Of a stretch of 49,545 nt of DNA, positions 3,264 through 49,545 are shown piece after piece. The notes beneath the pieces are model-generated. The model saw only the letters and a list, made by a program, of their open reading frames with translations. It ran no database searches and was not told where the DNA came from. How positions within the stretch are numbered: the stretch's first letter is position 1; each line of letters opens with the position of its first letter. A program made the translations under genes and the position numbers. The stretch is from Deltaproteobacteria bacterium. Lineage in GTDB: Bacteria; Desulfobacterota; Desulfomonilia; UBA1062. The stretch covers positions 1-49,545 of the forward strand of contig JAFGIF010000187.1 of assembly GCA_016929755.1 (NCBI GenBank), read 5' to 3'.

Positions 3264-3524
3264 ATGGCTCATAAAAAATCTGGTGGAACTTCAAGGAATG
3301 GTAGAGACACCGCAGGCAAGCGACTTGGTGTCAAACGATTTGATGGACAGAGTGTCAGTGCCGGTACCATAATTGTGCGTCAGAGAGGAACCAAAATCCA
3401 TCCCGGTGAAAATGTAGGTTGCGGCAGGGATTATACCCTGTTTGCTCTGAAAGACGGTGTCGTCAAATTTGAAACCCTCTACAACGACAAGAAGAGGGTA
3501 AAGGTTATCTCCGAAGCAGCCTGA
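3264..3524 (+). CDS. rpmA: 50S ribosomal protein L27
   Basis: [15 protein letters not shown]... is a canonical L27 N-terminus; 86 aa. Confidence 0.97.
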
Positions 3525-5657
<2,133 letters not shown>

Positions 5658-5658
<1 letters not shown>

Positions 5659-10056: not shown

Positions 10057-10548
10057 TAAACACCTCTTGATAATTATTTGGCATTATTTAAAACTACTAT
10101 AACCAATCGATAATAAACGCTATTTATAATACCAGTTTCAACAGCGAAAAATCCTCTTTTTATCAGATTCCTTTATTGTTAACATGATAATTTCGCTTGA
10201 TTATTTTGTGCGAAAAAAACTTATACCATGCAGTAGTTTTAAGAGCAAGCAAAAACAGGATGATATTGTACAAGATGTATATTAATAAAATATTAGAGCT
10301 AATTAATCAGTAAGTTAAATATAATATTGCAGGTATGATTTATAAAATCTTGATAGTAGAATACCTTAATAGTTAAAACATTTAACGCGTTGTCATGAAC
10401 ATTAAATTAATTCATAAAATAATTTATTAGAATTACGCTATGTATATGTAACATTAAATTTATATATAATTATCGATACGAACATGATATGTTGATTAAA
10501 TTGTCAATTTAATTGGACAATGGTATGTGTAGATAACAGGAGGTTAAT

Positions 10549-12678
10549 ATGGCAGCTAATCCATTGCACGTAATCATGAATCCATCATCCATTGCTGTTG
10601 TCGGTGCGAGTAATAATTTCAGCAAAATGGGAACACTCCAGTTGTTAAATATTATTTACAGCGGATTTCCCGGAGAAATTTTTCCTGTTCATCCGACAGA
10701 GAAAGAGATCTTCGGACTCAAGTCATATGCCTGTGTGGCTGATCTTCCATATCCCCCGGCTCTGGCACTTCTGGTTGTACCTACCAGGCTGGTCCCCGAA
10801 CTGCTCGAGGATTTCGGCAAACTGGAAACCCGATATGCCATTATTGTATCCGCCGGATTCAAGGAGACAGGCTCGGCGGGTATTGATCTCGAACAGGAGA
10901 TCGTATCTATAGCAAAATCTTATGGAATTCGTTTTGTCGGACCAAACTGTATGGGTATTGTAAATACGCAACACCCCCTGAATATTTCCGTTCTTCCGGT
11001 AAAGATGCCCGAAGGTGTGCTTAGTATCGCATCCCAGAGTGGAACCTATATAACCCAGACAATGCCTTATCTGCACCGTCAAGGTATAGCTGTCAGCAAG
11101 GCGATCAGTGTGGGGAATGAGGCCAATATCGATATTGTCGATTGTCTTGAATATCTGGGAGAAGACGATGAAACCAATGCAATATGCCTCTACATCGAGG
11201 GCATTCGCAGGGCGGATCGATTTCTCGAGGTTGCGAGACGGATCAGCAAGACCAAACCGATTGTAGCCCAGTATGTCGGCGGCACCAAGTCCGGCGCAAG
11301 ATCCGGTGCCAGTCATACAGGATCGCTTTCCGGTCCGGATTATGTATACGACGGCTTGTTCGCCCAGGCCGGAGTTATCCGGGTGAACACAATTGAAGAG
11401 GTCTATAAAATCGGCTGGACCCTTGCAACCCAGCCGCATCTTAATGGATCCAGAATTGGAGTAATAACACATTCAGGAGGACCAGGTACCGCGATTGTTG
11501 ATATCTGCGACCGTTTCGGAATGGATATTCCCGAATTATCGGGGAGGATTCAGGAAACCATCCGGGACATGGTTCCCGGACATGCGGCAGTTAAAAATCC
11601 GGTTGATCTGACATTCATGGTGGATTTGAAACCCCTTGTAGACGATATTCCCCGGATTATTTTTGCGTCCGATGAGATCGACGGCGTTATTATCCATGGC
11701 ATAATGGATACTGAATTCATGGGCTTCATGCATCCCGTCATCAGTCAGATTTCCGAATTGGAAAAGGAAGCTTTTGCAAAGGGATTTGAAGTAGATCTAA
11801 ATGTTTTGACTCAATTGCCATCAAAGTACAACAAACCGATTGTCGTTTCTTCATTCGTAACCCATCAGGATCACTCGACACAGGTTCTCCAACAGCACCG
11901 TATACCTCAGTTCGATATGCCTGAGAAAGCCGCCAGGGCCATGGCGGCACTTTACCAGCACCACCTCATCCGGAAACGGAAAGAGCCCCAGGCAGTGGAA
12001 TTGATGGAGATTCCTGAACAAGCTGAAAAAATTATGGAGAATCTAACAAACATTTCGGTTGATGAATTCACAGCCAAAGCGATATTGAAGACATACTCTA
12101 TCCCTGTTACCAACGAAGATATCGTACAAACTTTGGAGCAGGCAATGGCTGTTGCAGATAAGATCGGATATCCCGTAGCTCTCAAGGGGTGTTCTCCTGT
12201 TATTCAGCACAAGACAGAACAGGGGATGGTTTTTCTTGATATTAATGATTCAGACGATTTATCACAAGCGTTTGAAAAAATCCGCTCCAAAGATTCAGGA
12301 ATTCCGCTTCTTGTCTCACAGATGCTCAAAGGTGAGCGCGAGTTTATGACCGGCATAAGTTCATTTCCCGGATTCCCGCCCTGTGTCCTGTTTGGTCTCG
12401 GGGGAATTTACACCGAAGCCCTGCATGATATTGCCATACGCCTTGCTCCGTTGGGAAGAGATGATGCCGAAGAAATGATACTCTCGCTTTCTTCAAGCAA
12501 GCTGATCGGGCCCTACCGAGGAATGCCTCCGGTTGACATGGAGGCCCTCTCAAGCATTCTCATGAACTTAAGTCAACTCGCAATCCACTTTCCCCGGATT
12601 AAAGAAATTGACCTCAATCCGATCATAGTGGTAAATGGTAAACCGAAAGTGGCTGATGCGTTATTTATTATGAGCTAA
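10549..12678 (+). CDS. ADP-forming acyl-CoA synthetase, fused alpha+beta (CoA-binding + ATP-grasp)
   Basis: 709 aa. N-terminal CoA-binding fold, His loop GASHTGSLSG, and a C-terminal ATP-grasp-like region (GYPVALKG...). RBS AGGAGG. Confidence 0.85.
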   Translation: MAANPLHVIMNPSSIAVVGASNNFSKMGTLQLLNIIYSGFPGEIFPVHPTEKEIFGLKSYACVADLPYPPALALLVVPTRLVPELLEDFGKLETRYAIIVSAGFKETGSAGIDLEQEIVSIAKSYGIRFVGPNCMGIVNTQHPLNISVLPVKMPEGVLSIASQSGTYITQTMPYLHRQGIAVSKAISVGNEANIDIVDCLEYLGEDDETNAICLYIEGIRRADRFLEVARRISKTKPIVAQYVGGTKSGARSGASHTGSLSGPDYVYDGLFAQAGVIRVNTIEEVYKIGWTLATQPHLNGSRIGVITHSGGPGTAIVDICDRFGMDIPELSGRIQETIRDMVPGHAAVKNPVDLTFMVDLKPLVDDIPRIIFASDEIDGVIIHGIMDTEFMGFMHPVISQISELEKEAFAKGFEVDLNVLTQLPSKYNKPIVVSSFVTHQDHSTQVLQQHRIPQFDMPEKAARAMAALYQHHLIRKRKEPQAVELMEIPEQAEKIMENLTNISVDEFTAKAILKTYSIPVTNEDIVQTLEQAMAVADKIGYPVALKGCSPVIQHKTEQGMVFLDINDSDDLSQAFEKIRSKDSGIPLLVSQMLKGEREFMTGISSFPGFPPCVLFGLGGIYTEALHDIAIRLAPLGRDDAEEMILSLSSSKLIGPYRGMPPVDMEALSSILMNLSQLAIHFPRIKEIDLNPIIVVNGKPKVADALFIMS

Positions 12679-24675: not shown

Positions 24676-26178
24676 TCAACTGCGTCGACTTTTGGCATAC
24701 CAGACAACTTTCGCAAGGGCTTTCACCGCTGTTTCCGGGCAGGGATAGGCCATGATTCCCTGCTGGTCAAGATAATCGACAGGATTGTTATCAATAGCCA
24801 TGTCGAACATTGCAAGGTCGATAACCGGGATAACGGGTTTGCCGTGTTTTTTGATCAGATCCGTGACCATTTGGAAGAGATTCATTTCCTGGGAGATCAT
24901 GGATTCCGCCTGGCCCTGTGTGAGTTCCTGCGGAATCAATTTCGAATTCTTCCAGCTGATGGCCCTCAGTGTCATGTATCCCAGTCCCATCATGAGAACG
25001 GAATCAATTGCGGAATGTTCCATGAGGATATTAATCGAGTCTGTGATAACTTCAACATGCGATGGGGCTACAAGATCGATGGGGTTGTTTCTGCTCCAGT
25101 AAGCCGGAAGGATTCTGTCGAGTTTCTGTATCAACTCATCATCAAGTGGCTCGACGATCAATCCTTTCCTGAGGCACATGTCAGTGGCAATAACACCCCA
25201 GCCGCCTCCCAGGGTAATGATACCCACCCGGTTGCCTTCGGGAAGGGGCTGAGCGTTCAAGATTCCGGCAACATCTATCATCTCGTCCATGGTTTCCACC
25301 TGAATAATTCCGGCCTGTCTGCACATGGCGCTGAAAACTGTATCATTACTTGCGATTGCGCCCGTATGAGACATGGCGGCCTCGGCACCTTTTTGTGTAC
25401 GGCCGCCCTTGAGCAGGATGATAGGCTTTTCTCTCGAGATTCTCCTGGCGTTGTTAAAAAAGCGCTGGCCATCCCTGATACCCTCGACATACAGGCAAAT
25501 GATGCGAGTTTTTGGGTCCTGCCCAAGGTATTCCAGAAAATCTTCCGTATTGAGATCGCCCTCATTACCTGAACTGATCAGCCGGCTGATTCCGATTTTG
25601 CGGCGCAGCAAACGATAAGAAATGGATGATCCGATATTTCCGCTTTGGGCGATCATACCTACGGAACCGGGTTGCAAGGGTGCTCCGCTCATTAGGATAT
25701 GCATGATAGAAGGGTAGGCGCTGAAAATACCCATAGTGTTGGGACCTGCCAGATGCATTCCCCCGGCACGGGCCACACTGACAATTTCTTTTTCGAGCTC
25801 AGCTCCTTTTGAACCTGTTTCGGAAAATCCGGCTGTTATTATAATTCCAAACGGAATGTTTTTGGCCACGCATTTTTTTACTGTATCAAGCACCAAAGAT
25901 TCTCTGACAACGATGACGACCAGATCGATTGGTTCTGGAATACTATTCAGATCAGGATATACCTCGTGGCCGAACCATGTCCCTCCCTGTGGGTTAACCG
26001 GAAAAACATGGCCTTGAAAACCCCGGTTAACCAGGTGGTGAAGTATTATAAAACCCCATTTAAATATATTATTTGAGGCGCCGATAAAGGCGATCGTTCT
26101 CGGTTCGAAAAGGGAATTCAGCTTCGGCATACTTTCGAGAGTTGAAGGTTGCCCGTAAAGACTTGCATGTTCATTCAT
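24676..26178 (-). CDS. CoA-binding protein, NDP-forming acyl-CoA synthetase alpha-type (no ATP-grasp domain)
   Basis: 500 aa. IAFIGASNN..VFPVNP CoA-binding fold and His loop AMSHTGAIAS. RBS GGGGGGAA. Confidence 0.8.
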   Translation of the reverse strand: MNEHASLYGQPSTLESMPKLNSLFEPRTIAFIGASNNIFKWGFIILHHLVNRGFQGHVFPVNPQGGTWFGHEVYPDLNSIPEPIDLVVIVVRESLVLDTVKKCVAKNIPFGIIITAGFSETGSKGAELEKEIVSVARAGGMHLAGPNTMGIFSAYPSIMHILMSGAPLQPGSVGMIAQSGNIGSSISYRLLRRKIGISRLISSGNEGDLNTEDFLEYLGQDPKTRIICLYVEGIRDGQRFFNNARRISREKPIILLKGGRTQKGAEAAMSHTGAIASNDTVFSAMCRQAGIIQVETMDEMIDVAGILNAQPLPEGNRVGIITLGGGWGVIATDMCLRKGLIVEPLDDELIQKLDRILPAYWSRNNPIDLVAPSHVEVITDSINILMEHSAIDSVLMMGLGYMTLRAISWKNSKLIPQELTQGQAESMISQEMNLFQMVTDLIKKHGKPVIPVIDLAMFDMAIDNNPVDYLDQQGIMAYPCPETAVKALAKVVWYAKSRRS

Positions 26179-27776: not shown

Positions 27777-28564
27777 GGATTTTCTCCTGTATACATTTGT
27801 TTGGCTATAATAGCCGCCCCGAGGGCCCCCATAATTTGAGGATCAAACTTCAATCGTTTGATTTTCACACCCAGCATTTTTTCAAGATGGCGAACTACCC
27901 CGGTATTTTTGGCTACACCCCCGGTCATACACACATCTTTTTCCAGGCCGACGTTGCCCACGAGAATGGCAACCCTGCCGGCCATGGCCCGGTTGATGGC
28001 TTCGGCAATATCACCTTTCGACTTCCCAATATTCAGGTGATGAATTACTTCGGCCTGGGCCCAGACAGTACAGGCCGATGAAAGTGTAAGTGGTTCCTGG
28101 TTTTGCCCGCCTTTTAGACCCCCGAGTTCATCAATCGCCACTCCCAGAAGCTTGGCCATGACCTCCAGAAATCTGCCGGTACCGGCGGCACATTTATCAT
28201 TTGTGGTAAATTTCTGGATGGTTCCTTCTTTATCGATTCTAATGGCCTTGCAATCCTGGCCGCCGATATCTATAACCGTCCGCACACGGGGCATAACCCA
28301 CAGGGCACCTTTTCCATGGCAGGTAATTTCCGATACCGCCTCTTGAATAAATGGGATCTTGTTGCGTCCATAGCCGGTACCCACACAGCACATAACCTGT
28401 TCCTCATGCACGGCTGCCTTTTTCAGAGCCAGCTCAAAAACCTCCCTGGCTGATTCTTCCGGTCTGGTTTTCGATCTGATAACACAATAACCCAAAACAT
28501 TTTTGTTGTTGAGAATTAAGGCCTTGCTGGTAAGTGAGCCGACATCGCACCCCGCAACGATCAT
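27773..28564 (-). CDS. BcrAD/BadFG/HgdC-type activase ATPase (subunit 1)
   Basis: MIVAGCDVGS; NDKCAAGTGRFLE and SSACTVWAQAE. ATGA overlap with the upstream gene. Confidence 0.9.
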   Translation of the reverse strand: MIVAGCDVGSLTSKALILNNKNVLGYCVIRSKTRPEESAREVFELALKKAAVHEEQVMCCVGTGYGRNKIPFIQEAVSEITCHGKGALWVMPRVRTVIDIGGQDCKAIRIDKEGTIQKFTTNDKCAAGTGRFLEVMAKLLGVAIDELGGLKGGQNQEPLTLSSACTVWAQAEVIHHLNIGKSKGDIAEAINRAMAGRVAILVGNVGLEKDVCMTGGVAKNTGVVRHLEKMLGVKIKRLKFDPQIMGALGAAIIAKQMYTGENP

Positions 28565-29964
28565 GCTCCGATCCTCCTTAATGAAATAAACTCGTTTAAT
28601 TTATCCGTTATTGATTCCCATGACTGCACCCTGTCATCAAACCCATCGGCATACAAAACAAGGGTAGGGTAGCCCGCCTTTTCAAGGTCGCGCGCAATGC
28701 ACTTGATTACACCCCAGGTATTCCGGCAGCCCATGGTGCCGACATACACAATGAAATCGACATTGAGCACTCTGGCGGCCCCCAGGGTATCATCGAGCAT
28801 CATCCCCGGTGCATCATACGGGCCCCGTATCTGCTTGACCATGGGCATGCGCGAAACCTGGTCAGCCAGCGAATCGATGATAGCCTCATCCGAGCTGTCG
28901 TCTATATCGTACGTCTGGTCCTGTTTTTCTTTTGCGTACACTACATCTTTTTGCCAGAAGGTGAACAGCATTGAGCCCAACATGCTGATATCGTGCTCAT
29001 CGATCCAGTACCAGAAACGGGCATTCGTGGTATAGTGATCGATATAACAGAACAGAGCTCTGGCTTTTTCCCTGCCCGAAAGGGTGCCGGACAGATTTTT
29101 ATCGGCGATTCCTTTTGCGGTTTGCAGCATTGATTCCAACAGCAGAGTGTATTCTCTGGTGCCACCCATCATAAACTTGCCGCCATAGAGCATCAGATCG
29201 TACATGCCGGGCAGCGGCGAAGGGACCAGGCTGGCCAGATCAAAAAGCTCGCAGGCAATCTCGTCCTGTCTTTTAATCTCGCCAACGATTTCTTTGAGAC
29301 GTGCGAAATCAAGTTTTTTGCCGGTCTGCTTTTCCAGAAAGGTAATCAGGTTGCGGAAGTCTCGCCGGTGATATTTTGTAGCCCGCTCGTCGCTGAGAGT
29401 AGGAGGGCTGTTGAGCTGAAACATGGGTTTGTCGAGAAAGGCCGAGGCAAATGCAAAGGAATTGGCATTGGTGTCACAGATGCCGGGAGAATCAAACACG
29501 ATAAAATCGGGTTGTGTGCATAAACCGGCCAGGTAGGCGCCAAGGGCTCCGCGCTGAGCTGAACAGGATGTCTCGGTAAAACCAACTTCGCAGCAGTAAT
29601 CCAGGAATTCAGTTGTGCCGCGACGCAGTACAATTGTACCCAGTACGGTCCAGACTTCGAGACACATGGGCACGATATCAAAAGCATACAGGATCGGGGG
29701 TGCCATGCAGAACGATGTCAGGGCCGTGAATTTGCCGTTTTCCTTGGAAGTTACACACATTTTCATGTAGCCGGCCATCAGTTTCAGGAAGATATCACCG
29801 GGCTGGCCAAAGCGCATGAATGCTTCCAATACAGGCCCGTAGTGCGGCACATATTTCAAGAGATTGTGATACTCCTTGCAAAAGCCTTCATTGGTTTTTG
29901 AGGCGCATTCCAGGATGGTCCAGAGATTCCAGTCGTAATTATATTCCATGGTCTCGCGTTTCAT
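28561..29964 (-). CDS. 2-hydroxyacyl-CoA dehydratase / benzoyl-CoA reductase BcrB/BzdO-like large subunit (paralogue B)
   Basis: 467 aa. Conserved cysteines in YCCEVGFTETSCS, GICDTNANSF, FCYIDHY and GTMGCRNTWG. Confidence 0.8.
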   Translation of the reverse strand: MKRETMEYNYDWNLWTILECASKTNEGFCKEYHNLLKYVPHYGPVLEAFMRFGQPGDIFLKLMAGYMKMCVTSKENGKFTALTSFCMAPPILYAFDIVPMCLEVWTVLGTIVLRRGTTEFLDYCCEVGFTETSCSAQRGALGAYLAGLCTQPDFIVFDSPGICDTNANSFAFASAFLDKPMFQLNSPPTLSDERATKYHRRDFRNLITFLEKQTGKKLDFARLKEIVGEIKRQDEIACELFDLASLVPSPLPGMYDLMLYGGKFMMGGTREYTLLLESMLQTAKGIADKNLSGTLSGREKARALFCYIDHYTTNARFWYWIDEHDISMLGSMLFTFWQKDVVYAKEKQDQTYDIDDSSDEAIIDSLADQVSRMPMVKQIRGPYDAPGMMLDDTLGAARVLNVDFIVYVGTMGCRNTWGVIKCIARDLEKAGYPTLVLYADGFDDRVQSWESITDKLNEFISLRRIGA

Positions 29965-41892: not shown

Positions 41893-41964
41893 GCCAGCGT
41901 AGCTCAGTGGTAGAGCAGCTGATTCGTAATCAGCAGGTCGTCGGTTCAACCCCGACCGCTGGCT
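41893..41964 (+). tRNA. tRNA-Thr (anticodon CGT)
   Basis: Hand-folded cloverleaf. Acceptor GCCAGCG/CGCTGGC, D arm GCTC..GAGC, anticodon stem GCTGA/TCAGC with loop TTCGTAA, T arm GTCGG-TTCAACC-CCGAC. No encoded CCA. Confidence 0.9.
41919..41964 (+). repeat. attL core (3' 46 nt of the functional tRNA-Thr)
   Basis: CTGATTCGTAATCAGCAGGTCGTCGGTTCAACCCCGACCGCTGGCT is identical to 49437-49482. Confidence 0.85.
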
Positions 41965-42027
41965 TATTAATATTATTGAAGAAATTATCAATTTATTGAT
42001 TAAATAAAATCTCCTTCGTTATCACCA

Positions 42028-42050
42028 GTCCCCATTCTGTCCCCATAAAA
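42028..42050 (+). repeat. 23-bp direct repeat with two GTCCCCAT units (candidate integrase arm-type sites, left arm)
   Basis: GTCCCCATTCTGTCCCCATAAAA is identical to 49301-49323. Confidence 0.6.
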
Positions 42051-42293
42051 AATAAATAGTACGGAATCAATATACAGATTATCAATGCAAACCGTTTGGC
42101 CGCTCCGGGAAAAAAGGAATATTATGGAATACTCAAGGTAATACGTTAGAAATAATACAAGAACACTATAGAGTCTTCACCAGAGCGCCACCACGCGAAT
42201 ATTTAAGCATGATTAAGGTAATTAGCTAGGTGATATAGAATAAGGCGCGCCATGAGGGCGCACCGATGACCATTCCAGCCTTGCAAGGAAAAA

Positions 42294-42560
42294 TTATAAC
42301 ATCCTCTGTACAATAGACTCCGGGCTTAGGTGGCAAGACACCCATTCGATCAATTCCGGACTGCCTGCATTGAACGGCCCCTCTATTTCTTCCAGGTGCC
42401 CCACATCCAGAGCCAAGCAAGGTGATAGGGCATAGTGGATGTAAAATTTGCCGTCCTGGGCCTTATACAACGATTCCTTAACCTTTTCCTCAGGGTAATC
42501 TAATACGCCGGATTCCAGGTTACCGATAAACTTCATTCCGTTAGTTGTAGTTTTTTTCAT
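42294..42560 (-). CDS. hypothetical protein (88 aa)
   Basis: ATG is preceded by AGGAG. No recognisable motif. Confidence 0.5.
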   Translation of the reverse strand: MKKTTTNGMKFIGNLESGVLDYPEEKVKESLYKAQDGKFYIHYALSPCLALDVGHLEEIEGPFNAGSPELIEWVSCHLSPESIVQRML

Positions 42561-42597
42561 TTTTCCAAATCTCCTTTTTGGGTTTATTTTTTACTGT

Positions 42598-42900
42598 TCA
42601 TGCATCTTGAATATCAAAATGCTTTTCTAGGACATCATACAGCCGTTCCCTCTCAAGGAAAGCTAGAACGGCGCTCTTGGACAGAGGGTTTATGGTTTCA
42701 CCCTTTTTGCCTGTGTTACCTGTGTTATAGGAATGGTAATGATACCTAAAATAACTCCCTTTAAAAGTCTTATACAGAATCCAGCCTGAATCCAATTCAA
42801 CACACTCACCGTCTTCAGTTTGGTAGTAATCCTTTTTGCTACGGCATATTTCAATAGAGGCATCTGTATTGTAACGCTTGCCTTTTATTATGGCGATCAT
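42598..42900 (-). CDS. hypothetical protein (100 aa)
   Basis: ATGA overlap with the upstream terminase-like gene. No recognisable motif. Confidence 0.55.
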   Translation of the reverse strand: MIAIIKGKRYNTDASIEICRSKKDYYQTEDGECVELDSGWILYKTFKGSYFRYHYHSYNTGNTGKKGETINPLSKSAVLAFLERERLYDVLEKHFDIQDA

Positions 42901-43382
42901 ATTTGAGATTCCTTCTTGCCCGGCAACGGGGTGTATTTCCCTGGCCTGGCATAATTCTTCACCAGTTCACCTATTTCAGCCCGGATAACATCTTGAACGC
43001 TATTGAGTGGTTTACCAAACAACAAAGGCGGCAACCTATCGGACATTGATTCCATACCGGCCGTTACCGCAATTACGCGCGCGGTCCATTCCTTTTCTAT
43101 GTCCGGCCAGGCAACCAAATTGCCTTTTAGCTGATCTGCTTTTAACGTTTCATTGCTTGCTTTACTCCACCAGTATTTACGTTTAGCTTCGTTTATGGAT
43201 TCATCACCCGACTTGGCCGCGGCCCGTTCTTCCGCTATGTTTTCCCACCACCAATCGAAAACAGCCTTTGCATCAAAAGAATTTACCCCGGACTTCGGGC
43301 AACCCATTGCATGCCAAGCATTTACAGTTCGGGGTGTTACATTAAATAGGTCTGCAATTTCTTTAGTTGATAACTTTCTCAT
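42897..43382 (-). CDS. Nu1-like terminase small subunit / HTH DNA-binding protein
   Basis: ATG at 43382 follows AAGGAAGG. STKEIADLFNVTPRTVNAWHAMGCP and AVFDWWWEN parallel lambda Nu1 (KKQLADIFGASIRTIQNWQEQGMP, AVIKWYAE; recalled). The track start at 43673 overlaps the upstream gene. Confidence 0.6.
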   Translation of the reverse strand: MRKLSTKEIADLFNVTPRTVNAWHAMGCPKSGVNSFDAKAVFDWWWENIAEERAAAKSGDESINEAKRKYWWSKASNETLKADQLKGNLVAWPDIEKEWTARVIAVTAGMESMSDRLPPLLFGKPLNSVQDVIRAEIGELVKNYARPGKYTPLPGKKESQI

Positions 43383-43402
43383 TCTACCTTCCTTTCTATT
43401 CG

Positions 43403-43514
43403 TTCCCTCAGGGAAGAGGGAAGTAAGATTTTCTTCCCACAAGTGGACAAATTCCGCGCTTTTCTTAGCCGCGCAGGGTCCGCCCTGCTGGAAGGACCCG
43501 TGCCTTTCGGCACG
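43403..43514 (-). other. hairpin-dense GC-rich intergenic segment upstream of the terminase-like gene
   Basis: Stems TTCCC/GGGAA (43403-43415), GGGAAG/CTTCCC (43418-43438), GGGTCC/GGACCC (43476-43499) and CGTGCC/GGCACG (43499-43514; GAAA loop on the transcribed strand). Confidence 0.4.
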
Positions 43515-43530
43515 AGCCCCCAGTCTGTTA

Positions 43531-44124
43531 TTACAGCTTTGTAATTCCATACTCTGCACGGATGTTTTCCTGGAGTGCCTTGACCTCTTCAGGTTTTGGT
43601 ATCTCGAGCAACCCGGCCAACGGGCTGTTGAAAACATTTTCTTGAAAGGCACCTGCCATACAAGCCGCCGCATGGTAACGATTCAATAGTTGAACAATGT
43701 GATCGTCCCCAAGAGTCTGAGCCTTGATCTCATCGAACACAGCGTTGTGTAGCATCCTCTGACAACCATTCCTGATATTGACTGCCTGTTGAATCTTAGT
43801 CGATACAAGCCCTTGAGCACGAATACAGGCATTGATCAGATCTTCATGATGCTTCAGGTTCTTCTCTGCATCCCGGTGCTTTCTTTTGGCATCGGCCAAC
43901 TGCTCCTTGGTTATCTCGCCCATCGCATGCCGTTCAAATGCATGATCCAGGTCCTTTTTGCATTCATCGACGACCATCCGTAATCCAGACAATTTAGAGC
44001 GGGCATCTTCCTGATTATTCTGCAATGACACCATCTGAGCATTAGCCTGGTCATAATTGGCCTTGGCCTGTACGGCGTTCCGCTTTAATTGCTCAATATC
44101 CACAGGCTTTCTCGGTCTAGGCAT
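43531..44124 (-). CDS. hypothetical coiled-coil protein (197 aa)
   Basis: Charged, heptad-like N-terminal two-thirds. The ATG lies 1 nt after the upstream stop. Confidence 0.55.
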   Translation of the reverse strand: MPRPRKPVDIEQLKRNAVQAKANYDQANAQMVSLQNNQEDARSKLSGLRMVVDECKKDLDHAFERHAMGEITKEQLADAKRKHRDAEKNLKHHEDLINACIRAQGLVSTKIQQAVNIRNGCQRMLHNAVFDEIKAQTLGDDHIVQLLNRYHAAACMAGAFQENVFNSPLAGLLEIPKPEEVKALQENIRAEYGITKL

Positions 44125-44125
44125 A

Positions 44126-44482
44126 TTATTTATCCTCCTTCGACTCGTATATCCCGACGCGGCCTTGATCCTTGGCTTTCAGATAGGATTTAAAGCTATC
44201 CCGATCTCCATTGAACTCTTTCCGGGTGTCCGCATTCTGCCAAAGAGCATTGACGCGCTCATCCAGAATGAATGCATCAACATCACCCTTATATGATGTT
44301 CTGATATTGGCATCCTGTTTCCAGATTTTCATAGCCTGGGCCTCTGAGCGCTTGTGTTCCTCATACGCGGCCAGGTTCCCGAACTCCGAACGAACGGCAG
44401 CATCTGCCTTCCAATTTAAAATGATTTCCTCTGCTAATTTTCCATCTTGTGACATGATCGTGTTTCCCCTTTCATTTTTCAT
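44126..44482 (-). CDS. hypothetical protein with three tandem W-x-x-D/A-A-x-x-R repeats
   Basis: NWKADAAVRSEFGNLAAY / IWKQDANIRTSYKGDVDAF / LWQNADTRKEFNGDRDSF. An alternative start at ATG 44455 is possible. Confidence 0.55.
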   Translation of the reverse strand: MKNERGNTIMSQDGKLAEEIILNWKADAAVRSEFGNLAAYEEHKRSEAQAMKIWKQDANIRTSYKGDVDAFILDERVNALWQNADTRKEFNGDRDSFKSYLKAKDQGRVGIYESKEDK

Positions 44483-44566
44483 TTATTTTGAGTTTTTGAA
44501 AATAAATCTGTTTGGTTATCCGGCCCTTAGTTAGGGGCCTCTTATGACACTCATAAAAATCCCCCT

Positions 44567-47122
44567 TCATCGGTTAAAATTCCATGGGCCGGCAACTTGG
44601 CCGGTATCGTTTTTCAAATTGTCCGTAGAAAATTGCTCGAATTGTCTGACTTGTCTGCTAACACTGGATTGGTGCAGGTTTGCGGGTGCAGACTTCATGT
44701 CTGCAATGTCTGAGTTGTCTGCAAGACATCCTGTCCCTTGCAGACATTGCAGACTTTGTTTTTCCAATGTCTGCGCTTGCGAATCCTCACCAGTGCTGAC
44801 CTCGCAGACATCTCGGACAATTCGAACTTGTTTTAATAGACTATTTATTTTTTTATCCCATTGCAGACATTTCACAGATCGGCGTCCGTTGGCTGTAAAC
44901 GCTCTATCCGGTATAGTCAGACCCAAAGACCGCAAAAATGCGCCCATTGCATGGGGTGAACTTATCTCGACATGCTCCGGGCAACCCCGACTGTATCGTT
45001 CATGAATATAACCAACCGCAAGCCTTCCAGAATCCAATTCAGGTTTTAATGCTTCCAGGGTCCGGGCAAGGTGTATGTTCTGTTCATTAATCTCAGGTGT
45101 TGCCTCGGTATCGTCAGAGACGAGCCCCCGCGCGGCGTCCACGGTATGACCCATGTAAAATTCAGCGCAGGCGATACCTCGGTTAATGCCTTGCAAATCA
45201 AGAACAGTTCCGGGCTCTTCCTCTTCATAGAAAGCATGTAAACAGTGAAGAACACCCGCCATACGCAAGGCGGCCCCTACTATTTTAGGGATAAACCCGC
45301 GCAGGATCTTAGGGAGATCAAAACGTGTCGATCGTATATCATTTGCCCAATCAAAAAACCGTTTTTGAGCCTCGGGATTAAGCCGGATTACTCGCGGGCT
45401 CCATTCCGGATCAGATATAATGTTATCTGCCCACGCCATAGCATTTCTGAGCGGGATGTCCCAAAAAACACGATTCGTTTCTTCCCAACTTTCATTGGTA
45501 AGCTCCCGGACCTGGTCAATTTCAAAAGTAAATAAGAATCTATAAACCGTACCATCAGACAGATAGCGGCCATTATCGCCAGCAAAGGTTATGGCAAATG
45601 TTTCGGGCTGAATACCACCGATAATTGAAATGCAAGAACCCTCAATAAATTTTGAACCAGATACCCGCACAAGACGAACAACCGAACCGTCATATAAAGA
45701 CAGCCAAGCTTCACGATCAGTTCCTTTACCGGCCTTGTATTGATTCTGACCACCGATAAAGGCTGACAATTCATCGAAATAACATAACGTTCCGCCGTGC
45801 CCTGAAATATCTGACCTTATTCCCTCTGTTGTAGGGTCTGTGGTTACATACCCACGCTCACGCGGCGGTGGTGGTGTTTGCTTCTTGTCTTTGGGTGAGA
45901 GGAGGTCCCATTCACTACAGGCCTGCTTGTATTCCCTGTAAGCCTTTGCCTGGACCTCATAAATCGTCCGCATCATCATCTTGACAGGCGGGGTTTTGCC
46001 TTCGCCGGACGCTCGGATATCACAGATCCACAAGATAAGCGGTTCCTTCCATGATTTTTTTGGAGATACAATAACGGTTCGACCCAGCACGGATGCCATT
46101 ATTGACATTGCAACACCTAGCAATGGTGTCGGGCTCGTGGCGCATGAGCGCGCCAATTGGTTCAAGCTCTCTGGCAGTTCATACGGAAAAATCCACCAGG
46201 GACAAGGTTTTTTAGGAAAAAGTTCGCGCGCCCGGTTCCATTTATCGAACTGGGTATCTTCAGTCTCTTCCAGGTCCTCAGGCACATACTCCGGGGTATT
46301 CTCGATGATCTTTAAAAGCTCTTCCTTGGTGCCGCCGCGCTCGATCCAATCGGCAACATCTTCAGAATAGCCTAGGCCCGGCAAGGAAACAACTTTCAAA
46401 GACTTGACATATGCTGTAATTTCAGATACTATTCTGTTACAGTATTTCTTGCCTGGTTCATCATTATCGGACAGGATTACAAAGTGTTTCCTATCAAACG
46501 TTTCATTGTAGTTTTCAGACCATCGGCCCCCGCTCCCACCGGGTGCCGTGGTGCCTACAATTTCCGGTGGTAGCTTCAAGCCATTAACAGCATCAGCACA
46601 TTTCTCACCCTCAACATAAATAACCGTGTGTGCCGCCAGGACATCGGGCAGGTTGTATAAGACCTCTGGCACCTTGCCTGGGATCTCCTGGCCGTTCTCA
46701 ATACGAAATTGCCGTATGTCTTTACCGCCGCCTTCATAATCCCATCTCCGAACAATCCCGACCGGCTGCCCGGATTCATCACGGTAGACATAATCAGCCG
46801 TATGTTTCCGGGTCCCGGTTTTGGCTTTCTTCTGTTGCCCGGCAGGAAGATATTTCTTCATGAGTCCGGCAACGTCTGTGCTTTCGATCTTGCAAAAAAC
46901 ATCAAGTATATCCCCGCCGGGCATCCAATCTTGTCGAACAAAGACATGTTCAACATTCCCCGCATTATCCAAGCGCACAACCAACCGGTCATCACCGACC
47001 GGCGCGCCATTCAGGAAATTAGGTCCGCACATCTCGTGAGCGTTTTTCTTTTTGAGTAGGGGAAGATACTCGCGTTTGAATTTGTCTTGAAGAATTTCCT
47101 TCAGTTGTTCGATATTATTCAT
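44567..47122 (-). CDS. bifunctional primase (Toprim) / P-loop helicase-like replication protein
   Basis: 851 aa. Toprim motifs VIYVEGEKCADAV and ILSDNDEPGKKY. Walker-A-like SGEGKT and Walker-B-like LCYFDE. RBS GAGAGGGGAAA. Confidence 0.8.
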   Translation of the reverse strand: MNNIEQLKEILQDKFKREYLPLLKKKNAHEMCGPNFLNGAPVGDDRLVVRLDNAGNVEHVFVRQDWMPGGDILDVFCKIESTDVAGLMKKYLPAGQQKKAKTGTRKHTADYVYRDESGQPVGIVRRWDYEGGGKDIRQFRIENGQEIPGKVPEVLYNLPDVLAAHTVIYVEGEKCADAVNGLKLPPEIVGTTAPGGSGGRWSENYNETFDRKHFVILSDNDEPGKKYCNRIVSEITAYVKSLKVVSLPGLGYSEDVADWIERGGTKEELLKIIENTPEYVPEDLEETEDTQFDKWNRARELFPKKPCPWWIFPYELPESLNQLARSCATSPTPLLGVAMSIMASVLGRTVIVSPKKSWKEPLILWICDIRASGEGKTPPVKMMMRTIYEVQAKAYREYKQACSEWDLLSPKDKKQTPPPPRERGYVTTDPTTEGIRSDISGHGGTLCYFDELSAFIGGQNQYKAGKGTDREAWLSLYDGSVVRLVRVSGSKFIEGSCISIIGGIQPETFAITFAGDNGRYLSDGTVYRFLFTFEIDQVRELTNESWEETNRVFWDIPLRNAMAWADNIISDPEWSPRVIRLNPEAQKRFFDWANDIRSTRFDLPKILRGFIPKIVGAALRMAGVLHCLHAFYEEEEPGTVLDLQGINRGIACAEFYMGHTVDAARGLVSDDTEATPEINEQNIHLARTLEALKPELDSGRLAVGYIHERYSRGCPEHVEISSPHAMGAFLRSLGLTIPDRAFTANGRRSVKCLQWDKKINSLLKQVRIVRDVCEVSTGEDSQAQTLEKQSLQCLQGTGCLADNSDIADMKSAPANLHQSSVSRQVRQFEQFSTDNLKNDTGQVAGPWNFNR
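44643..44869. repeat. iteron field (TGTCTGC/GCAGACA heptamers), candidate replication origin
   Basis: Forward TGTCTG(C/A) at 44643, 44652, 44698, 44707, 44716 and 44768. Reverse GCAGAC(A/T) at 44688, 44740, 44749, 44804 and 44863. An AT-rich stretch at 44829-44860 lies between the last two. Confidence 0.6.
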
Positions 47123-47140
47123 TTTCCCCTCTCATCCCTG

Positions 47141-47374
47141 TTAAAGCTGTGTGCTCTTATCTTCCAGAAACTTAATCAATGATTCCACGGGATAGGCAAT
47201 TCTTCTTTTCCCGATACGTACTCGATCCTTTACGCCTTTCCCCATGCAATCCAGGTTTGCCATAGTTCTGGGATTCAATATTCCACCGGAAAATTTGCCG
47301 ACTTCGCTTCTTGCTACCAAAGCCGACGGCCACTGTTCTGCCATTTTTGTAAAATCAAAATTTGCTCGTTTCAT
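47141..47374 (-). CDS. excisionase/AlpA-like small DNA-binding protein
   Basis: 77 aa, GGAGG RBS. The pattern ARSEVGKFSGG..NPRTMANL...RIGKRRIAYPVESLIKFLE resembles excisionase-type HTH proteins. Confidence 0.5.
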   Translation of the reverse strand: MKRANFDFTKMAEQWPSALVARSEVGKFSGGILNPRTMANLDCMGKGVKDRVRIGKRRIAYPVESLIKFLEDKSTQL

Positions 47375-47440
47375 AAAAAAAACCTCCGTTCTTATTTTGT
47401 GATCACGGATGTAATCTTATGAAAACAAACGTAAAGAATC

Positions 47441-47492
47441 TTGGGAAACAAATGCGGCACTTATTTCCCTGATAAGGTTGGCTTTGGGAAAT
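47441..47492. promoter_or_regulatory. candidate operator triplet (GGGAAA / TTTCCC / GGGAAA)
   Basis: TTGGGAAA at 47441-47448, ATTTCCC at 47463-47469 and TTTGGGAAAT at 47483-47492, at ~21-22 bp spacing in the intergenic region upstream of the excisionase-like gene. Confidence 0.3.
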
Positions 47493-47565
47493 GTTTTAGA
47501 AACGGGTTCTGAAAATTCTATTTCATAAAACCAGCATATTGAAATTTTTTAACACATTAAGATAT

Positions 47566-48084
47566 TTATTTTTTAGCAGCAATTAGATTATTATTTTCAT
47601 CATACAATGAGTCTATTTCTCTCTGAACTTCCGAAGCGGCCTTTACAGCCTGTTGAGCTTTTTTATAGAGTTTTTCTACTGTTGCAGAGTGATCCCCACT
47701 ACCGATCATATCTTTACCAATGTCATAAAATATGCTTCCCTTTTGACCCCTGGTACGGGTTTCCATTTCTTCACGAACCCTATCATAAACAACCATCATA
47801 AAACTGAAAGAGTGTCTATATCTGTCCTCAAACGTGGAAAAACATCGAGCATCATTAAATCCCAAAGCGTTCTTAATCATAACGCCAGCTTTGCCGGTTG
47901 GTGGATTCAATTCTAATATTTTTTCTGAGGATCGCCCTAGATACCTCATAACCCATTTTGGTAAGCTCTTTTCGGCTTTCCAACATTCATTAATTTTTTT
48001 CCATGCTAATAAGGGGTTTTTAGGCACTCCATCTTCAAAATCATCTAGTTCATAATTAAAATCGAGCATTATTTCTTTATCCAT
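47566..48084 (-). CDS. hypothetical protein (172 aa), abuts the integrase gene
   Basis: The ATG at 48084 directly abuts the integrase stop (48085-48087). No recognisable motif. AT-rich coding sequence. Confidence 0.55.
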   Translation of the reverse strand: MDKEIMLDFNYELDDFEDGVPKNPLLAWKKINECWKAEKSLPKWVMRYLGRSSEKILELNPPTGKAGVMIKNALGFNDARCFSTFEDRYRHSFSFMMVVYDRVREEMETRTRGQKGSIFYDIGKDMIGSGDHSATVEKLYKKAQQAVKAASEVQREIDSLYDENNNLIAAKK

Positions 48085-49308
48085 TCAAGTGACCCTTTTT
48101 GGAATTTGGTTGCTGGTTTTACTCTCTGTATTTAAGAATTTCTCAAGATTTTTCACTGCATCCTGCATGGTATTTTGCCCAAGGTGGGAATACCTTTCTG
48201 TCATTGCAATTGTACTATGTCCAAGCAGTTCTTTTACTGTGTAAAGATCTGTTCCATTTTCAACCAGCCATGAAGCATATGTATGCCGTAGGGTGTGAAA
48301 AACTACTTTGTCGCGCCTGTCAGAAATGCCCTTATTCAAATTAAGATCATTGATTACACGGTCGAAGGTTTTGGAGATTTCCCTTTGAGGTTTTCCTTTA
48401 TTATCTTTGAAAATATACTCTTCTGGTTGACCTCTTTTTAATTCATCGAACATTTCTTTAACGTCTTGCGTCATGTATCCTTTTCGATTTTTACTTGTTT
48501 TCGTATCTCTAACGGTAATTAATCCCTTATCAATTAAAAGATCCTTCCATTTTAAGTTGAAAATTTCCCCGGCCCGCAAGCCACAACGAAGGGATATTAA
48601 CGAAACATCATGAACTTGCTGACTTCGGACTTTCAGGGCATTAAGTAGGTGATTGGCTTCATCCTTGGTTAAAAACCTCATGCGCCGGTTATCAACGGAC
48701 GGTTTTTTGATCTTTGATACGGGATTGTCTTTTTCATAGAGGTTTAAAATCCTTGCAAGGTTGAAAACTTGCCGTATGACCGCCAGGCAATACTGAATGC
48801 TTCTGGGTGAAAGATTTTTGACCGACATATTCTTTTTGATGCGTTCAAGGTCAAGGGGTGATACTTTCTTCAATGGCTTATCTCCAATAACTGGACATAT
48901 CCATTTTTTATACATTGATTTTTCATTTCTGTATGAATTGTGAGACTTGTTATCTTTAGCCTGGGGTAGGTAGGTGTCACTAAAAAATGTATTGAATGTC
49001 ATCTCGTTAACCTTGGCCAGTCTTTTTTCTTCCTTATTTTGTTCTCGCTGTTCAGATAATCGCGACGGACCTTGGCATTTTTTGGCATTCTCTTTCAATT
49101 CACACAGTCTATTAAAGGCCCCCTCTGCGGTTTTTCCTTCACTGGCCCACCCAAAACCTTCCTCCATTCGTTCACCATCAACCTGGTATCTGATTGAGAA
49201 GTATTGATCATATTTAACGCCATGCTTCCGGGTAGGGTGCTTGCGATACCTGACCCCCCGATATTTCGTTTTTTGCCATTTAGTCCCCATCTTTTTATCT
49301 GTCCCCAT
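48085..49308 (-). CDS. tyrosine recombinase / phage-type integrase
   Basis: Catalytic signature LRAGE (R), HTLRHTYASW (HxxR) and LLGHSTIAMTERYSHL (H, Y). N-terminal arm-binding-like domain. An alternative ATG at 49290 is possible. Confidence 0.92.
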   Translation of the reverse strand: MGTDKKMGTKWQKTKYRGVRYRKHPTRKHGVKYDQYFSIRYQVDGERMEEGFGWASEGKTAEGAFNRLCELKENAKKCQGPSRLSEQREQNKEEKRLAKVNEMTFNTFFSDTYLPQAKDNKSHNSYRNEKSMYKKWICPVIGDKPLKKVSPLDLERIKKNMSVKNLSPRSIQYCLAVIRQVFNLARILNLYEKDNPVSKIKKPSVDNRRMRFLTKDEANHLLNALKVRSQQVHDVSLISLRCGLRAGEIFNLKWKDLLIDKGLITVRDTKTSKNRKGYMTQDVKEMFDELKRGQPEEYIFKDNKGKPQREISKTFDRVINDLNLNKGISDRRDKVVFHTLRHTYASWLVENGTDLYTVKELLGHSTIAMTERYSHLGQNTMQDAVKNLEKFLNTESKTSNQIPKRVT

Positions 49309-49323
49309 TCTGTCCCCATAAAA
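49301..49323 (+). repeat. 23-bp direct repeat with GTCCCCAT units (candidate arm-type sites, right arm)
   Basis: Identical to 42028-42050. A third GTCCCCAT lies at 49283-49290. The repeat overlaps the integrase start codon. Confidence 0.6.
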
Positions 49324-49436
49324 TTAATGAAACAGTAGTTTTTTAAATGACACAATATGAACATATATATCTTATAAAACCAGTAATAGTCAATAGTTAA
49401 ATGATGCTAGGTGAGATTGGATGAAATGCATAAAAA

Positions 49437-49482
49437 CTGATTCGTAATCAGCAGGTCGTCGGTTCAACCCCGACCGCTGGCT
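49437..49482 (+). repeat. attR core (displaced 3' fragment of tRNA-Thr)
   Basis: 46 nt identical to 41919-41964. It lacks the tRNA 5' half, so it is not a gene. Confidence 0.85.
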
Positions 49483-49545
49483 CCATGCTTTACGGGTTTT
49501 AAATATGCTTCTGCTAACGAATTACTAACTCTTGACCAAAAAACA

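Follow-up and report, generated by a model that had tools for sequence, protein, structure and literature searches.

A 7,518-bp unit within the 49,545-nt stretch of DNA analysed here (the window) is likely an integrative, PICI-like phage satellite with lambda-type cos self-packaging via its own small terminase subunit (TerS). Because it encodes an integrase, a replication enzyme and TerS and carries a cos-like site but no shell genes, it most likely spreads by taking the capsids of a lambda-like helper phage. The initial annotation had described a helper-dependent, phage-satellite-like island, and this description is supported by TerS and cos homology, the absence of a large terminase (TerL) and the existence of TerL-less relatives. 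Together these elements probably represent a PICI-like, cos-packaged satellite family whose hosts are anaerobic and probably deltaproteobacterial.

Island architecture and integration site

The island is inserted in tRNA-Thr(CGU), the one tRNA gene found by ARAGORN and Rfam, and is flanked by 46-bp att cores. The tRNA-Thr gene is intact, its 3' 46 nt being the attL core, and the encoded CCA is absent after integration (TAT follows the attL copy and CCA the attR copy). In agreement with the initial annotation, the identity block starts within the anticodon stem, at its second base (tRNA position 27), and extends as far as the discriminator base; a perfect 46-mer repeat within 49.5 kb is far above chance. 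The empty attB and circular attP junctions that it proposed to look for were sought by exact-match scans, and none were found. The island comprises the following features, in window coordinates.

41893..41964, plus strand: tRNA-Thr(CGU) (ARAGORN; Rfam RF00005, 71.7 bits)
41919..41964, plus strand: attL core, 46-bp identity block (perfect direct repeat)
42028..42046, plus strand: two GTCCCCAT repeats in the tRNA-proximal arm, candidate arm-type integrase binding sites
42244..42264, minus strand: terminator-like G+C-rich hairpin (8-bp stem, 7 GC pairs), 3' of the operon's last ORF
42294..42560, minus strand: orf88, no profile matches
42598..42900, minus strand: orf100, no profile matches
42897..43382, minus strand: Nu1/DUF1441-type TerS, 161 aa (phrog_57, 1.7e-21)
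43400..43516, minus strand: cos-like packaging site (homology to phage cos regions)
43531..44124, minus strand: orf197, orphan coiled-coil protein with homologues in the related islands L005 and L055
44126..44482, minus strand: orf118, three internal W-x-x-D/A-x-x-R-x-E/S-F/Y repeats seen in the translation
44567..47122, minus strand: primase-helicase (PF13148, phrog_239, NF005477)
44687..44879, both strands: TGCAGACW iteron-like repeat cluster within the primase-helicase gene, at its 3' end
47141..47374, minus strand: 77-aa basic protein without profile match, directly upstream of the primase gene
47566..48084, minus strand: orf172, possible regulator, no significant profile match
48085..49308, minus strand: tyrosine integrase, N-terminal SAM-like and arm-binding-type domains (PF00589, PF14659, phrog_1)
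49283..49319, plus strand: three GTCCCCAT repeats, candidate arm-type sites that overlap with the region of the integrase start codon
49437..49482, plus strand: attR core, displaced 3' fragment of tRNA-Thr, then CCA (direct repeat and sequence reading)

The ORFs are co-directional on the minus strand as first reported, but nine rather than ten are credible. The tyrosine integrase was correctly recognised (PF00589, 3.5e-32; PF14659, 2.4e-8; phrog_1, 9.7e-68), as was its position beside the displaced tRNA fragment and distal from the intact tRNA. GTCCCCAT occurs five times in the window, always at an end of the island and always on the same strand, and the TGTCCCCACTCTGTCCCCAC pair upstream of the L005 integrase is homologous to these arm repeats. 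The Toprim/P-loop primase-helicase call was likewise borne out, with a Toprim-type primase at approximately residues 70-300, a DUF3987 P-loop helicase-like region at 334-660, and matches to PF13148 (DUF3987, 1.2e-43), phrog_239 (primase/helicase, 6.6e-20) and NF005477 (2.5e-27); tblastn matched it to annotated phage primase/helicases. The TGCAGACW cluster within its gene holds six of the nine window occurrences of this motif (nine were reached in 0 of 100 shuffles), coincides with repeat families D1, D2, I1, I3 and I5, and is a candidate replication origin. The 77-aa protein had been called excisionase-like, for which Pfam, PHROGs, NCBIfam and PDB searches gave no support, and its AlphaFold model is unusable (pLDDT 38.8); judged by position alone, it is possibly a Xis/AlpA-type regulator. 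The C-terminal 15 aa of orf118, which had no profile matches, match an ORF fragment that precedes the orf197 homologue of L005, and orf88 resembles the C-terminal part of a 211-aa protein encoded after terS in L005 (blastp, 27% identity, E 1e-6). Consistent with the initial annotation, no ORF matched a large terminase, portal, capsid, tail or lysis gene in the Pfam, PHROGs and NCBIfam profiles.

Beyond attR, the window contains 63 nt before the contig ends. These resemble the arm of an element, and something therefore appears to continue past the window, the 7.5-kb unit itself being bounded by its own att sites. Positions 49513-49529 (GCTAACGAATTACTAAC), 30 nt outside attR, match the arm repeat of L015, share its orientation with respect to the tRNA end and are followed by a similar A-run; the chance expectation of this match is ~0.01 per window. 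At the sequence level, the motif suggests a second element in tandem. The 7.5-kb unit could also be a single module within a larger array, composite or tandem, at tRNA-Thr, which is a real if tentative possibility; it may then depend on or belong to the element beginning just beyond attR, which could even be the helper prophage. However, the unit has a complete att pair, an integrase and arm sites of its own, and so can recombine autonomously.

The small terminase, the cos-like site and related islands

The Nu1-like small terminase of the initial annotation was confirmed, with a shorter reading frame. Translation most likely starts at Met-98 of the longer ORF, giving 161 aa (42897-43382) instead of 258; a putative ribosome-binding site, AAGGAAGG, lies 5 nt upstream of this start, and the 258-aa form would overlap orf197. 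Homologues of this TerS carry PF07278, and its profile matches TerS DNA-binding domains in the PDB (7lwr, 6hn7_B and 1j9i; E 1e-4 to 6e-4), the sequence and fold matches being DNA-binding domains from cos phages, lambda gpNu1 included. In the AlphaFold model the N-terminal part has a pLDDT of 83-89, and its top five Foldseek matches are TerS DNA-binding domains (prob 1.0). Approximately 26 distinct phage homologues lie directly upstream of a lambda GpA-type TerL, an adjacency seen in phages L006, L009 and L012, in 14 of 14 IMG/VR loci and in most metagenome loci.

The 148 bp between orf197 and terS are homologous to the cos region of phages with a GpA-type TerL (nhmmer E 4e-16 to 4e-4). The cos-like site contains the following elements.

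43499-43488, minus strand: GGGTCCTTCCAG box
between 43470 and 43469, minus strand: predicted end-generating cut
43447-43441, minus strand: heptamer TCCACTT
43423-43411, minus strand: CTTCCCTCTTCCC box

The first nucleotides of five different phage contigs (L030, L016, L017, L018 and L020) align with one another, each exactly 23 nt before a conserved heptamer, C-C-N-[AC]-C-T-T. The first four start at profile position 63, and the start of L020, which had no profile match, was placed by manual alignment only. L054 is the same phage as L030 with its cos junction uncut, and the islands also carry the junction uncut, the site described here being an uncut homologue of phage cos. Compared with L005, the cos-like region is 74% identical in nucleotides versus 61-63% in the flanking genes. 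In the TerS phylogeny, the window, L005 and L015 cluster beside the phages that have these cos ends. At the predicted cut the island reads GCG/GCTAAG (slash at the cut) versus GAGAC in the closest phages, a difference that weighs against the satellite reading.

Related TerL-less islands were found in L005, L015, L055, L011 and L033/34, and L005, L015, L011 and L055 each carry an integrase and a replicase. The integrase is 53% identical to that of L005, where orf197 (57%) and TerS (61%) are also conserved, and 38% identical to that of L015. L015, the one island among these that comes from a MAG with the label 'Deltaproteobacteria bacterium', is 15.7 kb long, lies between copies of a 49-bp tRNA-Lys repeat and has its integrase at the distal end. 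The orf197 homologue of L005 is encoded directly upstream of cos and terS, and the only other relative among 1.84 billion representatives searched is P0084 from L055, encoded two genes upstream of a TerS of the DUF1441 type. The linkage of orf197 with TerS is thus seen in three islands, and orf197 is a candidate packaging or capsid accessory factor.

The phage origin of TerS and cos is clear, and the integrase, replication genes, TerS and cos could be what is left of a decayed, lambda-like temperate prophage that lost TerL and its structural genes and has no satellite life cycle; a 599-aa protein of L015 with tape-measure-like PHROG matches is readable as such a relic. We regard this as unlikely. 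The nine ORFs are all intact and closely packed, and the att repeats are perfect. The island terS is followed by small unrelated ORFs, the terminator and the att site, whereas TerL directly follows in phages, and tblastn detected no TerL fragment. Moreover, at least four further contigs show the same compact layout of int, replicase, (orf197), cos and terS, with replicases and cargo that differ, which argues for selection on this layout.

Transfer without phage particles seems unlikely. An integrative element could be moved by conjugative mobilisation, vesicles or natural transformation, its TerS-like winged-helix protein acting not in packaging but as a DNA-binding regulator, excision factor or anti-phage decoy. 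The N-terminal fold is common to MerR, BldC and excisionase proteins (weak matches), the protein could serve as a recombination directionality factor since none was identified in the island, and defence genes are frequent cargo of satellites and islands, with a STAND NTPase and a UvrD helicase in L005. However, the homology to phage TerS extends beyond the HTH over the full length (92-100% coverage, C-terminal helical part included), a cos homologue lies beside the gene, and profile and PADLOC searches found no relaxase, T4SS or PADLOC system.

Proposed satellite life cycle

The helper of the proposed satellite would be a phage with a lambda-like head module, i.e. a Nu1/GpA terminase, a lambda-type portal and an S49/ClpP protease; none is present on the 49.5-kb contig. 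Helper growth in the cell would induce the island, which would be excised as a circle through Int, perhaps with help of the 77-aa protein, and replicated into concatemers by the primase-helicase from an origin that may be the TGCAGACW iterons. TerS would then bind the cosB-like boxes (TCCACTT and TTCCC repeats) and recruit the helper TerL, which would cut near 43470/43469 and pump satellite DNA into helper proheads. Because the unit is only 7.5 kb, far under one headful of a lambda-like capsid, it would probably be packaged as multimers of ~5-6 copies in full-size heads. Alternatively, the capsid or motor could be remodelled by one of the island proteins of unknown function, e.g. the TerS-linked orf197. 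IMG/VR contained no close relatives of the island primase or orf197.

Comparison with known satellites

Gram-negative PICIs have their genes in one transcription direction, as does the island. PICIs, above all the terS-bearing SaPI type and Gram-negative types such as EcCICFT073, are the nearest known systems (Fillol-Salom 2018; de Sousa 2023), with a core set of int, regulator, pri-rep, capsid morphogenesis and terS (PMC10085698). The island shares their site-specific integrase, primase-replicase, packaging module with a small terminase and lack of structural or lysis genes, and its size is near the 9.5-kb PICI median. Unlike PICIs, it has no recognisable AlpA, MerR or Stl regulator and no detectable capsid-morphogenesis gene; its proteins have no close counterparts among known PICI proteins, and its host is apparently an anaerobe outside the taxa holding >99.9% of PICIs. 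The cos-type site is shared with EcCICFT073, whose multimers are packaged in full-size heads as in cos-type PICIs generally (PMC6092414). Multimer packaging has been reported for EcCICFT073, PICMIs and marine VEIMEs (PMC6092414, PMC10803314, PMC9618062).

A similar combination of tyrosine recombinase, primase/helicase and terS occurs in the PICI-like tycheposons known from Prochlorococcus and further marine bacteria, which integrate in tRNA genes with a partial tRNA at the far end, form tandem arrays at tRNAs and presumably hijack the capsids of phages (Hackl et al., bioRxiv 10.1101/2020.12.28.424599). Host and habitat differ, and the available part of that account describes neither a cos site nor a Nu1/GpA helper link. 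The elements of PMC9618062 and the PICMIs (Barcia-Cruz et al. 2024, PMC10803314) are also small, with integrase and primase/helicase, without capsid genes and sometimes with AlpA and TerS. They were physically found inside virions, whereas the island is known as an integrated copy only; PICMIs integrate next to fis and lack TerS (PMC10803314), whereas the island occupies tRNA-Thr and has TerS. Their concatemers are packaged in full-size capsids (PMC9618062, PMC10803314), and by analogy a cos element of 7.5 kb would most plausibly share this fate.

Satellite phage P4 (~10 kb) is likewise integrated in a tRNA gene and encodes an integrase together with the alpha protein, a large primase-helicase. 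In contrast to P4, the island has its integrase at the far end from the intact tRNA, and no homologue of Psu, Delta, Sid or Epsilon was detected in it. P4 is packaged at a cos site by its helper's terminase, as the island would be. The cos-type satellites P4, SaPIbov5 and EcCICFT073 use the helper's cos (that of P2 in the case of P4) and have no TerS of their own, the phage TerS being retargeted by Rpp in EcCICFT073. Unlike these known cos-type satellites, the island carries a Nu1-type TerS and a cos-like site together.

Integration site and flanking sequence

The window holds a single tRNA gene, a tRNA-Thr(CGU) identified by both ARAGORN and Rfam (Rfam detected no other RNA in the window), and a repeat search recovered a perfect 46-nt direct repeat with one copy in the intact gene and the other in a displaced tRNA 3' fragment, which bears out the target and the repeat proposed in the initial annotation. 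The repeat spans tRNA position 27 (the second base of the anticodon stem) to position 72 (the discriminator base).

41893-41964, plus strand: tRNA-Thr(CGU)
41919-41964: proximal repeat copy, within the intact tRNA gene (attL core)
49437-49482: distal repeat copy, in the displaced fragment (attR core)
42028 and 42039; 49283, 49301 and 49312, all on the same strand: GTCCCCAT octamers, candidate arm-type integrase sites

CCA follows the distal copy and TAT the proximal one; integration therefore displaced the original tRNA 3' segment and supplied a replacement. The anticodon-loop sublocation class that Williams reportedly defined in 2002 comprises identity blocks running from the anticodon stem-loop to the tRNA 3' end, and the block found here (tRNA positions 27-72) has this form, as do those of the retrieved island L015 and of the tRNA fragment in another, L005. 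The three elements occupy different targets, namely tRNA-Thr(CGU) in the window, a tRNA-Arg(CCU)-like fragment in L005 and tRNA-Lys(CUU) in L015; the identity block begins in the anticodon stem-loop in each, and in all three the integrase gene adjoins the displaced fragment and reads inward (L005 9340-9514, L015 2804-3057). The integrase thus lies beside the displaced fragment and away from the intact tRNA, as originally described.

Within the 49.5-kb window, GTCCCCAT is found five times, always on the same strand and always at the island ends. On the coding strand the distal three arm repeats (window 49283-49319) read ATGGGGAC, and two of them encode Met-Gly-Thr, at residues 1-3 and 7-9 of the integrase. 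The arm sites overlap the integrase translation start, and autoregulation could therefore occur; Met-7 may be the true start of the protein.

The predicted circular attP junction (...GATGAAATGCATAAAAA, the 46-bp core, then TATTAATATTATTG...) gave no matches in IMG/VR, and the predicted empty-site attB junction (the tRNA followed by CCATGCTTT...) gave none in JGI metagenomes, the latter being a weak test because the right flank used may belong to a second element; the junction searches advised in the initial annotation were thus negative. The window is the entire contig, which ends 63 nt past attR. Within this short flank, 30 nt right of attR and outside the island, GCTAACGAATTACTAAC (49513-49529) matches an arm-type repeat of L015 (2980-2996 and 18482-18498; chance expectation about 0.01); the copies agree in orientation, lie about equally far from the tRNA 3' end and are each followed by an A-run. 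This sequence match suggests a second, L015-like integrative element in tandem, possibly even a prophage, cut off by the contig end, and such an element may account for the break in the contig as well as for the lack of empty-site matches. No helper phage was found on the 49.5-kb contig. The host genes, by Pfam, indicate anaerobe-type metabolism without a taxon-diagnostic feature, and their annotations are consistent with a host that degrades organic acids or aromatic compounds anaerobically. Host-part genes lie at window 570-1946, 10549-12678, 24676-26178 and 28561-29964; this part encodes three ADP-forming acyl-CoA synthetase-like proteins and one 2-hydroxyglutaryl-CoA dehydratase D-component-like protein, as well as large PAS/GAF histidine kinases.

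Gene content of the island

Nine credible ORFs lie between the repeats, all on the minus strand, so that the co-direction originally described holds and the count of ten does not.

48085-49308, minus strand: integrase gene (int), PF00589 at 3.5e-32, N-terminal SAM-like domain, phrog_1 at 9.7e-68
47566-48084, minus strand: orf172 (172 aa), without annotation
47141-47374, minus strand: 77-aa ORF, upstream of the primase gene
44567-47122, minus strand: 851-aa primase-helicase ORF, DUF3987 at 1.2e-43, PHROG primase/helicase phrog_239 at 6.6e-20
44126-44482, minus strand: orf118 (118 aa), three visible internal repeats, without annotation
43531-44124, minus strand: orf197 (197 aa), without annotation
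42897-43382, minus strand: terS, small terminase gene, 161 aa, best read from Met-98 of the longest frame
42598-42900, minus strand: orf100 (100 aa), without annotation
42294-42560, minus strand: orf88 (88 aa), without annotation
42264-42244: terminator-like hairpin after orf88, the last island ORF

These profile matches uphold the tyrosine integrase and the 851-aa primase-helicase of the initial annotation. The latter protein also matches NCBIfam PRK07078 (2.5e-27), and its residues ~70-290 match annotated phage primase/helicases by tblastn; it has no relative in the PDB. The excisionase-like call for the 77-aa protein, by comparison of the protein with Pfam, PHROGs, NCBIfam and the PDB, retains no support except position: no profile or PDB match was obtained even at E up to 10, and a single-sequence AlphaFold model was unusable. 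Neither this protein nor the 172-aa one matches an AlpA, MerR or Stl regulator in Pfam, PHROGs or NCBIfam, the location of the 77-aa ORF upstream of the primase gene being its sole hint of a regulatory role.

Pfam, PHROGs and NCBIfam reveal no capsid, scaffold or Cpm/Ccm-like gene among the island ORFs, five of which are without annotation. Tail, holin, portal and head-tail connector/adaptor genes are likewise absent by Pfam and PHROGs, and tblastn with phage references found neither a large terminase (TerL) nor a portal in the island proteins, in agreement with the originally reported lack of a large terminase and structural genes. PADLOC gave no convincing defence match, only weak ones of coiled-coil/HTH type (E 0.002-0.05).

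TGCAGACW repeats on both strands are clustered at 44687-44879, inside the 3' end of the primase-helicase gene; the cluster contains six of the nine occurrences in the window, and none of 100 shuffles reached nine. This iteron-like cluster is a candidate replication origin. A 190-bp AT-rich spacer (window 47375-47565) separates orf172 from the 77-aa ORF, with a 25-nt tandem repeat in 2.2 copies (47544-47597) and a hairpin with a 12-bp stem (47469-47443) in this area. The spacer is likely a regulatory region that divides an int-orf172 unit from a replication/packaging operon.

Small terminase and probable cos site

The Met-98 start of terS is preceded by a ribosome-binding site, AAGGAAGG, and the protein is matched at 1.7e-21 by phrog_57 ('terminase small subunit'). 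When a profile built from its family was run against the PDB with hmmsearch, it retrieved the DNA-binding domains of small terminases at E 1e-4 to 6e-4, including 7lwr (1.3e-4), 6hn7_B and lambda gpNu1 (1j9i, 5.6e-4). The AlphaFold model has pLDDT 83-89 across the first 50 residues, and its best five Foldseek matches are the same domains (prob 1.0, target-normalised TM-score 0.62-0.83). The identity of the Nu1-like small terminase in the initial annotation is thus confirmed by phrog_57, the PDB and Foldseek, and the protein is of lambda Nu1 type, with a gpNu1-like N-terminal winged helix-turn-helix and phage homologues encoded upstream of GpA TerL.

Homologues were gathered from the protein database, IMG/VR, JGI metagenomes and GTDB genomes, and their loci were sorted by the presence of TerL, portal and protease genes, as judged by tblastn with reference sequences. 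In phages, about 26 distinct TerS genes have a lambda GpA-type TerL (PF05876 and PF20454) directly downstream, with a lambda-type portal and an S49/ClpP protease after it. The island TerS can be aligned over its full length to the conserved core of the phage proteins, some versions of which carry a variable N-terminal extension. In a neighbour-joining tree without bootstrap, the TerS of the window, L005 and L015 group together, beside those of the phages L030, L016, L017 and L018.

Between orf197 and terS lies a spacer of 148 bp that shares 74% identity with its L005 counterpart, versus 61-63% for the flanking genes. The window, the phage contig L054 and the islands L015 and L005 have four blocks of this spacer in common. 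GGGTCCTTYCAG comes first; a ...GCG|GAGAC-type junction lies ~30 nt beyond it, the heptamer C-C-N-[AC]-C-T-T follows 23 nt after the junction, and the fourth block is a TTCC-N-TTCC box. Five different phage contigs (L030, L016, L017, L018 and L020) start exactly at the junction, 23 nt before the heptamer. Duplicates were recognized as such (L016 equals the L031 contig, L017 the L032 contig and L018 the L035 contig), and the L020 sequence recurs as L012, L013 and L014, recovered in three independent assemblies. An nhmmer profile of uncut sites places the starts of L030, L016, L017 and L018 at E 4e-16 to 4e-4, all at profile position 63, while the L020 start, which has no profile match, was aligned by hand. 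L054 is the same phage as L030 with the junction spanned uncut, a form also present in L009, and the profile found internal cos-like copies in L009, L033/L034 and L039. No right-end phage contigs were recovered. That different phages start at one and the same position is most readily explained by cos cleavage leaving physical DNA ends there, and the island therefore bears a homologue of the phage cos region beside its own TerS. The window copy scores E ~1e-36 with nhmmer, but its sequence is part of the model. By its homology to physical phage genome ends and its proximity to terS, the site is probably of lambda cos type.

43499-43488, minus strand: GGGTCCTTCCAG box of the island cos
between 43470 and 43469, minus strand: predicted cos cut
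43447-43441, minus strand: cos heptamer TCCACTT
43423-43411, minus strand: TTCC box of the island cos

At the predicted island cut the bases are GCTAAG, versus GAGAC in the nearest phages, and the cognate helper is therefore not among the retrieved sequences. A symmetric cosN around a GGGTCC...GGACCC palindrome was dropped, its implied ~36-nt overhang being implausible. A GAAA-loop hairpin at 43516-43497, just past the orf197 stop codon, shows covariation between the window and L005 (CGTGCC/GGCACG vs CGCGGC/GTCGCG); it was dropped as a conserved RNA/DNA structure, being missing from L015 and L054.

Related islands, proposed cycle and known satellites

An indexed search for orf197 homologues returned only orf197 itself, and a full HMMER scan of 1.84 billion representatives added one remote relative, P0084 (E 5e-5), from the TerL-less 5.6-kb contig L055. 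The gene order there is primase fragment, 90-aa ORF, P0084, 141-aa ORF, DUF1441 TerS (162 aa), small ORFs, HTH_17 protein and integrase. Three TerL-less islands thus have an orf197-family gene upstream of terS: in the window and in L005 it is the immediate neighbour, ahead of cos, and in L055 one gene intervenes. This TerS-linked family could be a new motor-redirection or capsid-size factor. L005, the island most closely related to that of the window, resembles it in its orf197 homologue (57% identity), TerS (61%) and integrase (53%), and also bears orf118 traces and an orf88-like domain. Its terS is followed (2698-7134) by genes for an 808-aa protein that combines an Mrr nuclease with a STAND/NACHT NTPase and for a UvrD-type helicase; they occupy the place taken by orf100 and orf88 in the window and probably form an anti-phage defence module. 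L015, a TerL-less 15.7-kb island from a MAG labelled 'Deltaproteobacteria bacterium', is bounded by a perfect 49-bp repeat of the tRNA-Lys(CUU) 3' part, with an integrase (38% identity) adjoining the displaced fragment and arm repeats at both ends. Among the PHROG matches of its 599-aa protein (10490-12289) are several 'tail length tape measure' families, the best at E 1e-14; the protein is either a phage relic or a helical/lytic-domain protein misattracted by tape-measure profiles. L011, also without TerL, has a DnaG/AAA_25 primase-helicase, an HTH_17 protein and a TerS at 48-49% identity; in L033/L034, again without TerL, TerS is followed by a coiled-coil protein 30% identical to that of L015. 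Terminal overlaps indicating circularity were absent from L001, L005, L011 and L055, and IMG/VR held no relatives of the island primase or orf197.

From the elements directly seen, namely the att pair, integrase, arm repeats, primase-helicase, Nu1-type TerS, cos homologue and the lack of TerL and structural genes, we infer the following cycle. Induction would come from a helper phage that has a Nu1/GpA terminase and a lambda-like head, and Int would excise a 7,518-bp circle to be replicated by the primase-helicase, perhaps from the TGCAGACW cluster at 44687-44879. The satellite TerS is predicted to bind cosB-like boxes and recruit the helper TerL, which would cut cos and package satellite concatemers. 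Filling a 40-45-kb head would take ~5-6 copies of the 7.5-kb unit, and multimer packaging has been reported for EcCICFT073 (PMC6092414), VEIMEs (PMC9618062) and PICMIs (PMC10803314). Alternatively, an island protein such as orf197 might downsize the capsid.

Phage satellites drive gene transfer and phage resistance, and to our knowledge nearly all those characterised so far were found in medically relevant Proteobacteria and Firmicutes. These two phyla account for more than 99.9% of the PICIs detected by SatelliteFinder (PMC10085698), and the literature searched contained no paper linking phage satellites with Desulfobacterota. The island and its relatives would carry the known range of satellites into sediment and digester anaerobes and, with nine genes in 7.5 kb, would provide a minimal hijacking kit. 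The pairing of a satellite TerS with a recognizable cos would offer a sequence-level handle for satellite-helper matching in metagenomes, and the orphan proteins linked to TerS may have new functions in packaging interference.

SatelliteFinder recognizes five core PICI components (int, regulator, pri-rep, capsid morphogenesis and terS) and forbids tail, holin, portal and head-tail connector/adaptor genes (PMC10085698). When such rules, suggested in the initial annotation, were applied by hand, int, pri-rep, terS and the absence of forbidden genes agreed, and the capsid-morphogenesis gene was missing. The island shares only integrase and primase-helicase with P4-like elements and is not one of them, because Pfam and PHROGs detect no Psu, Sid, Delta or Epsilon. 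PICMIs lie next to fis and have a three-gene core of int, alpA and primase without TerS (PMC10803314); the island is not a PICMI, because TerS is present and its site is a tRNA-Thr gene, not beside fis. It is similar in architecture to TerS-bearing VEIMEs and to PICI-like tycheposons, which combine a tyrosine recombinase, pri and terS in a tRNA gene (bioRxiv 10.1101/2020.12.28.424599). Tentatively, and with more doubt than conviction, it may be the first example of a family of cos-type satellites that has not been described before and has anaerobic Desulfobacterota-like hosts, with its own Nu1-type TerS, a private cos and a satellite-specific coiled-coil partner of the orf197 family. The characterised cos satellites P4, SaPIbov5 and EcCICFT073/Rpp borrow or retarget the helper TerS, whereas this island pairs its own Nu1-type TerS with cos and adds orphan proteins linked to TerS; its host range, too, appears to differ.
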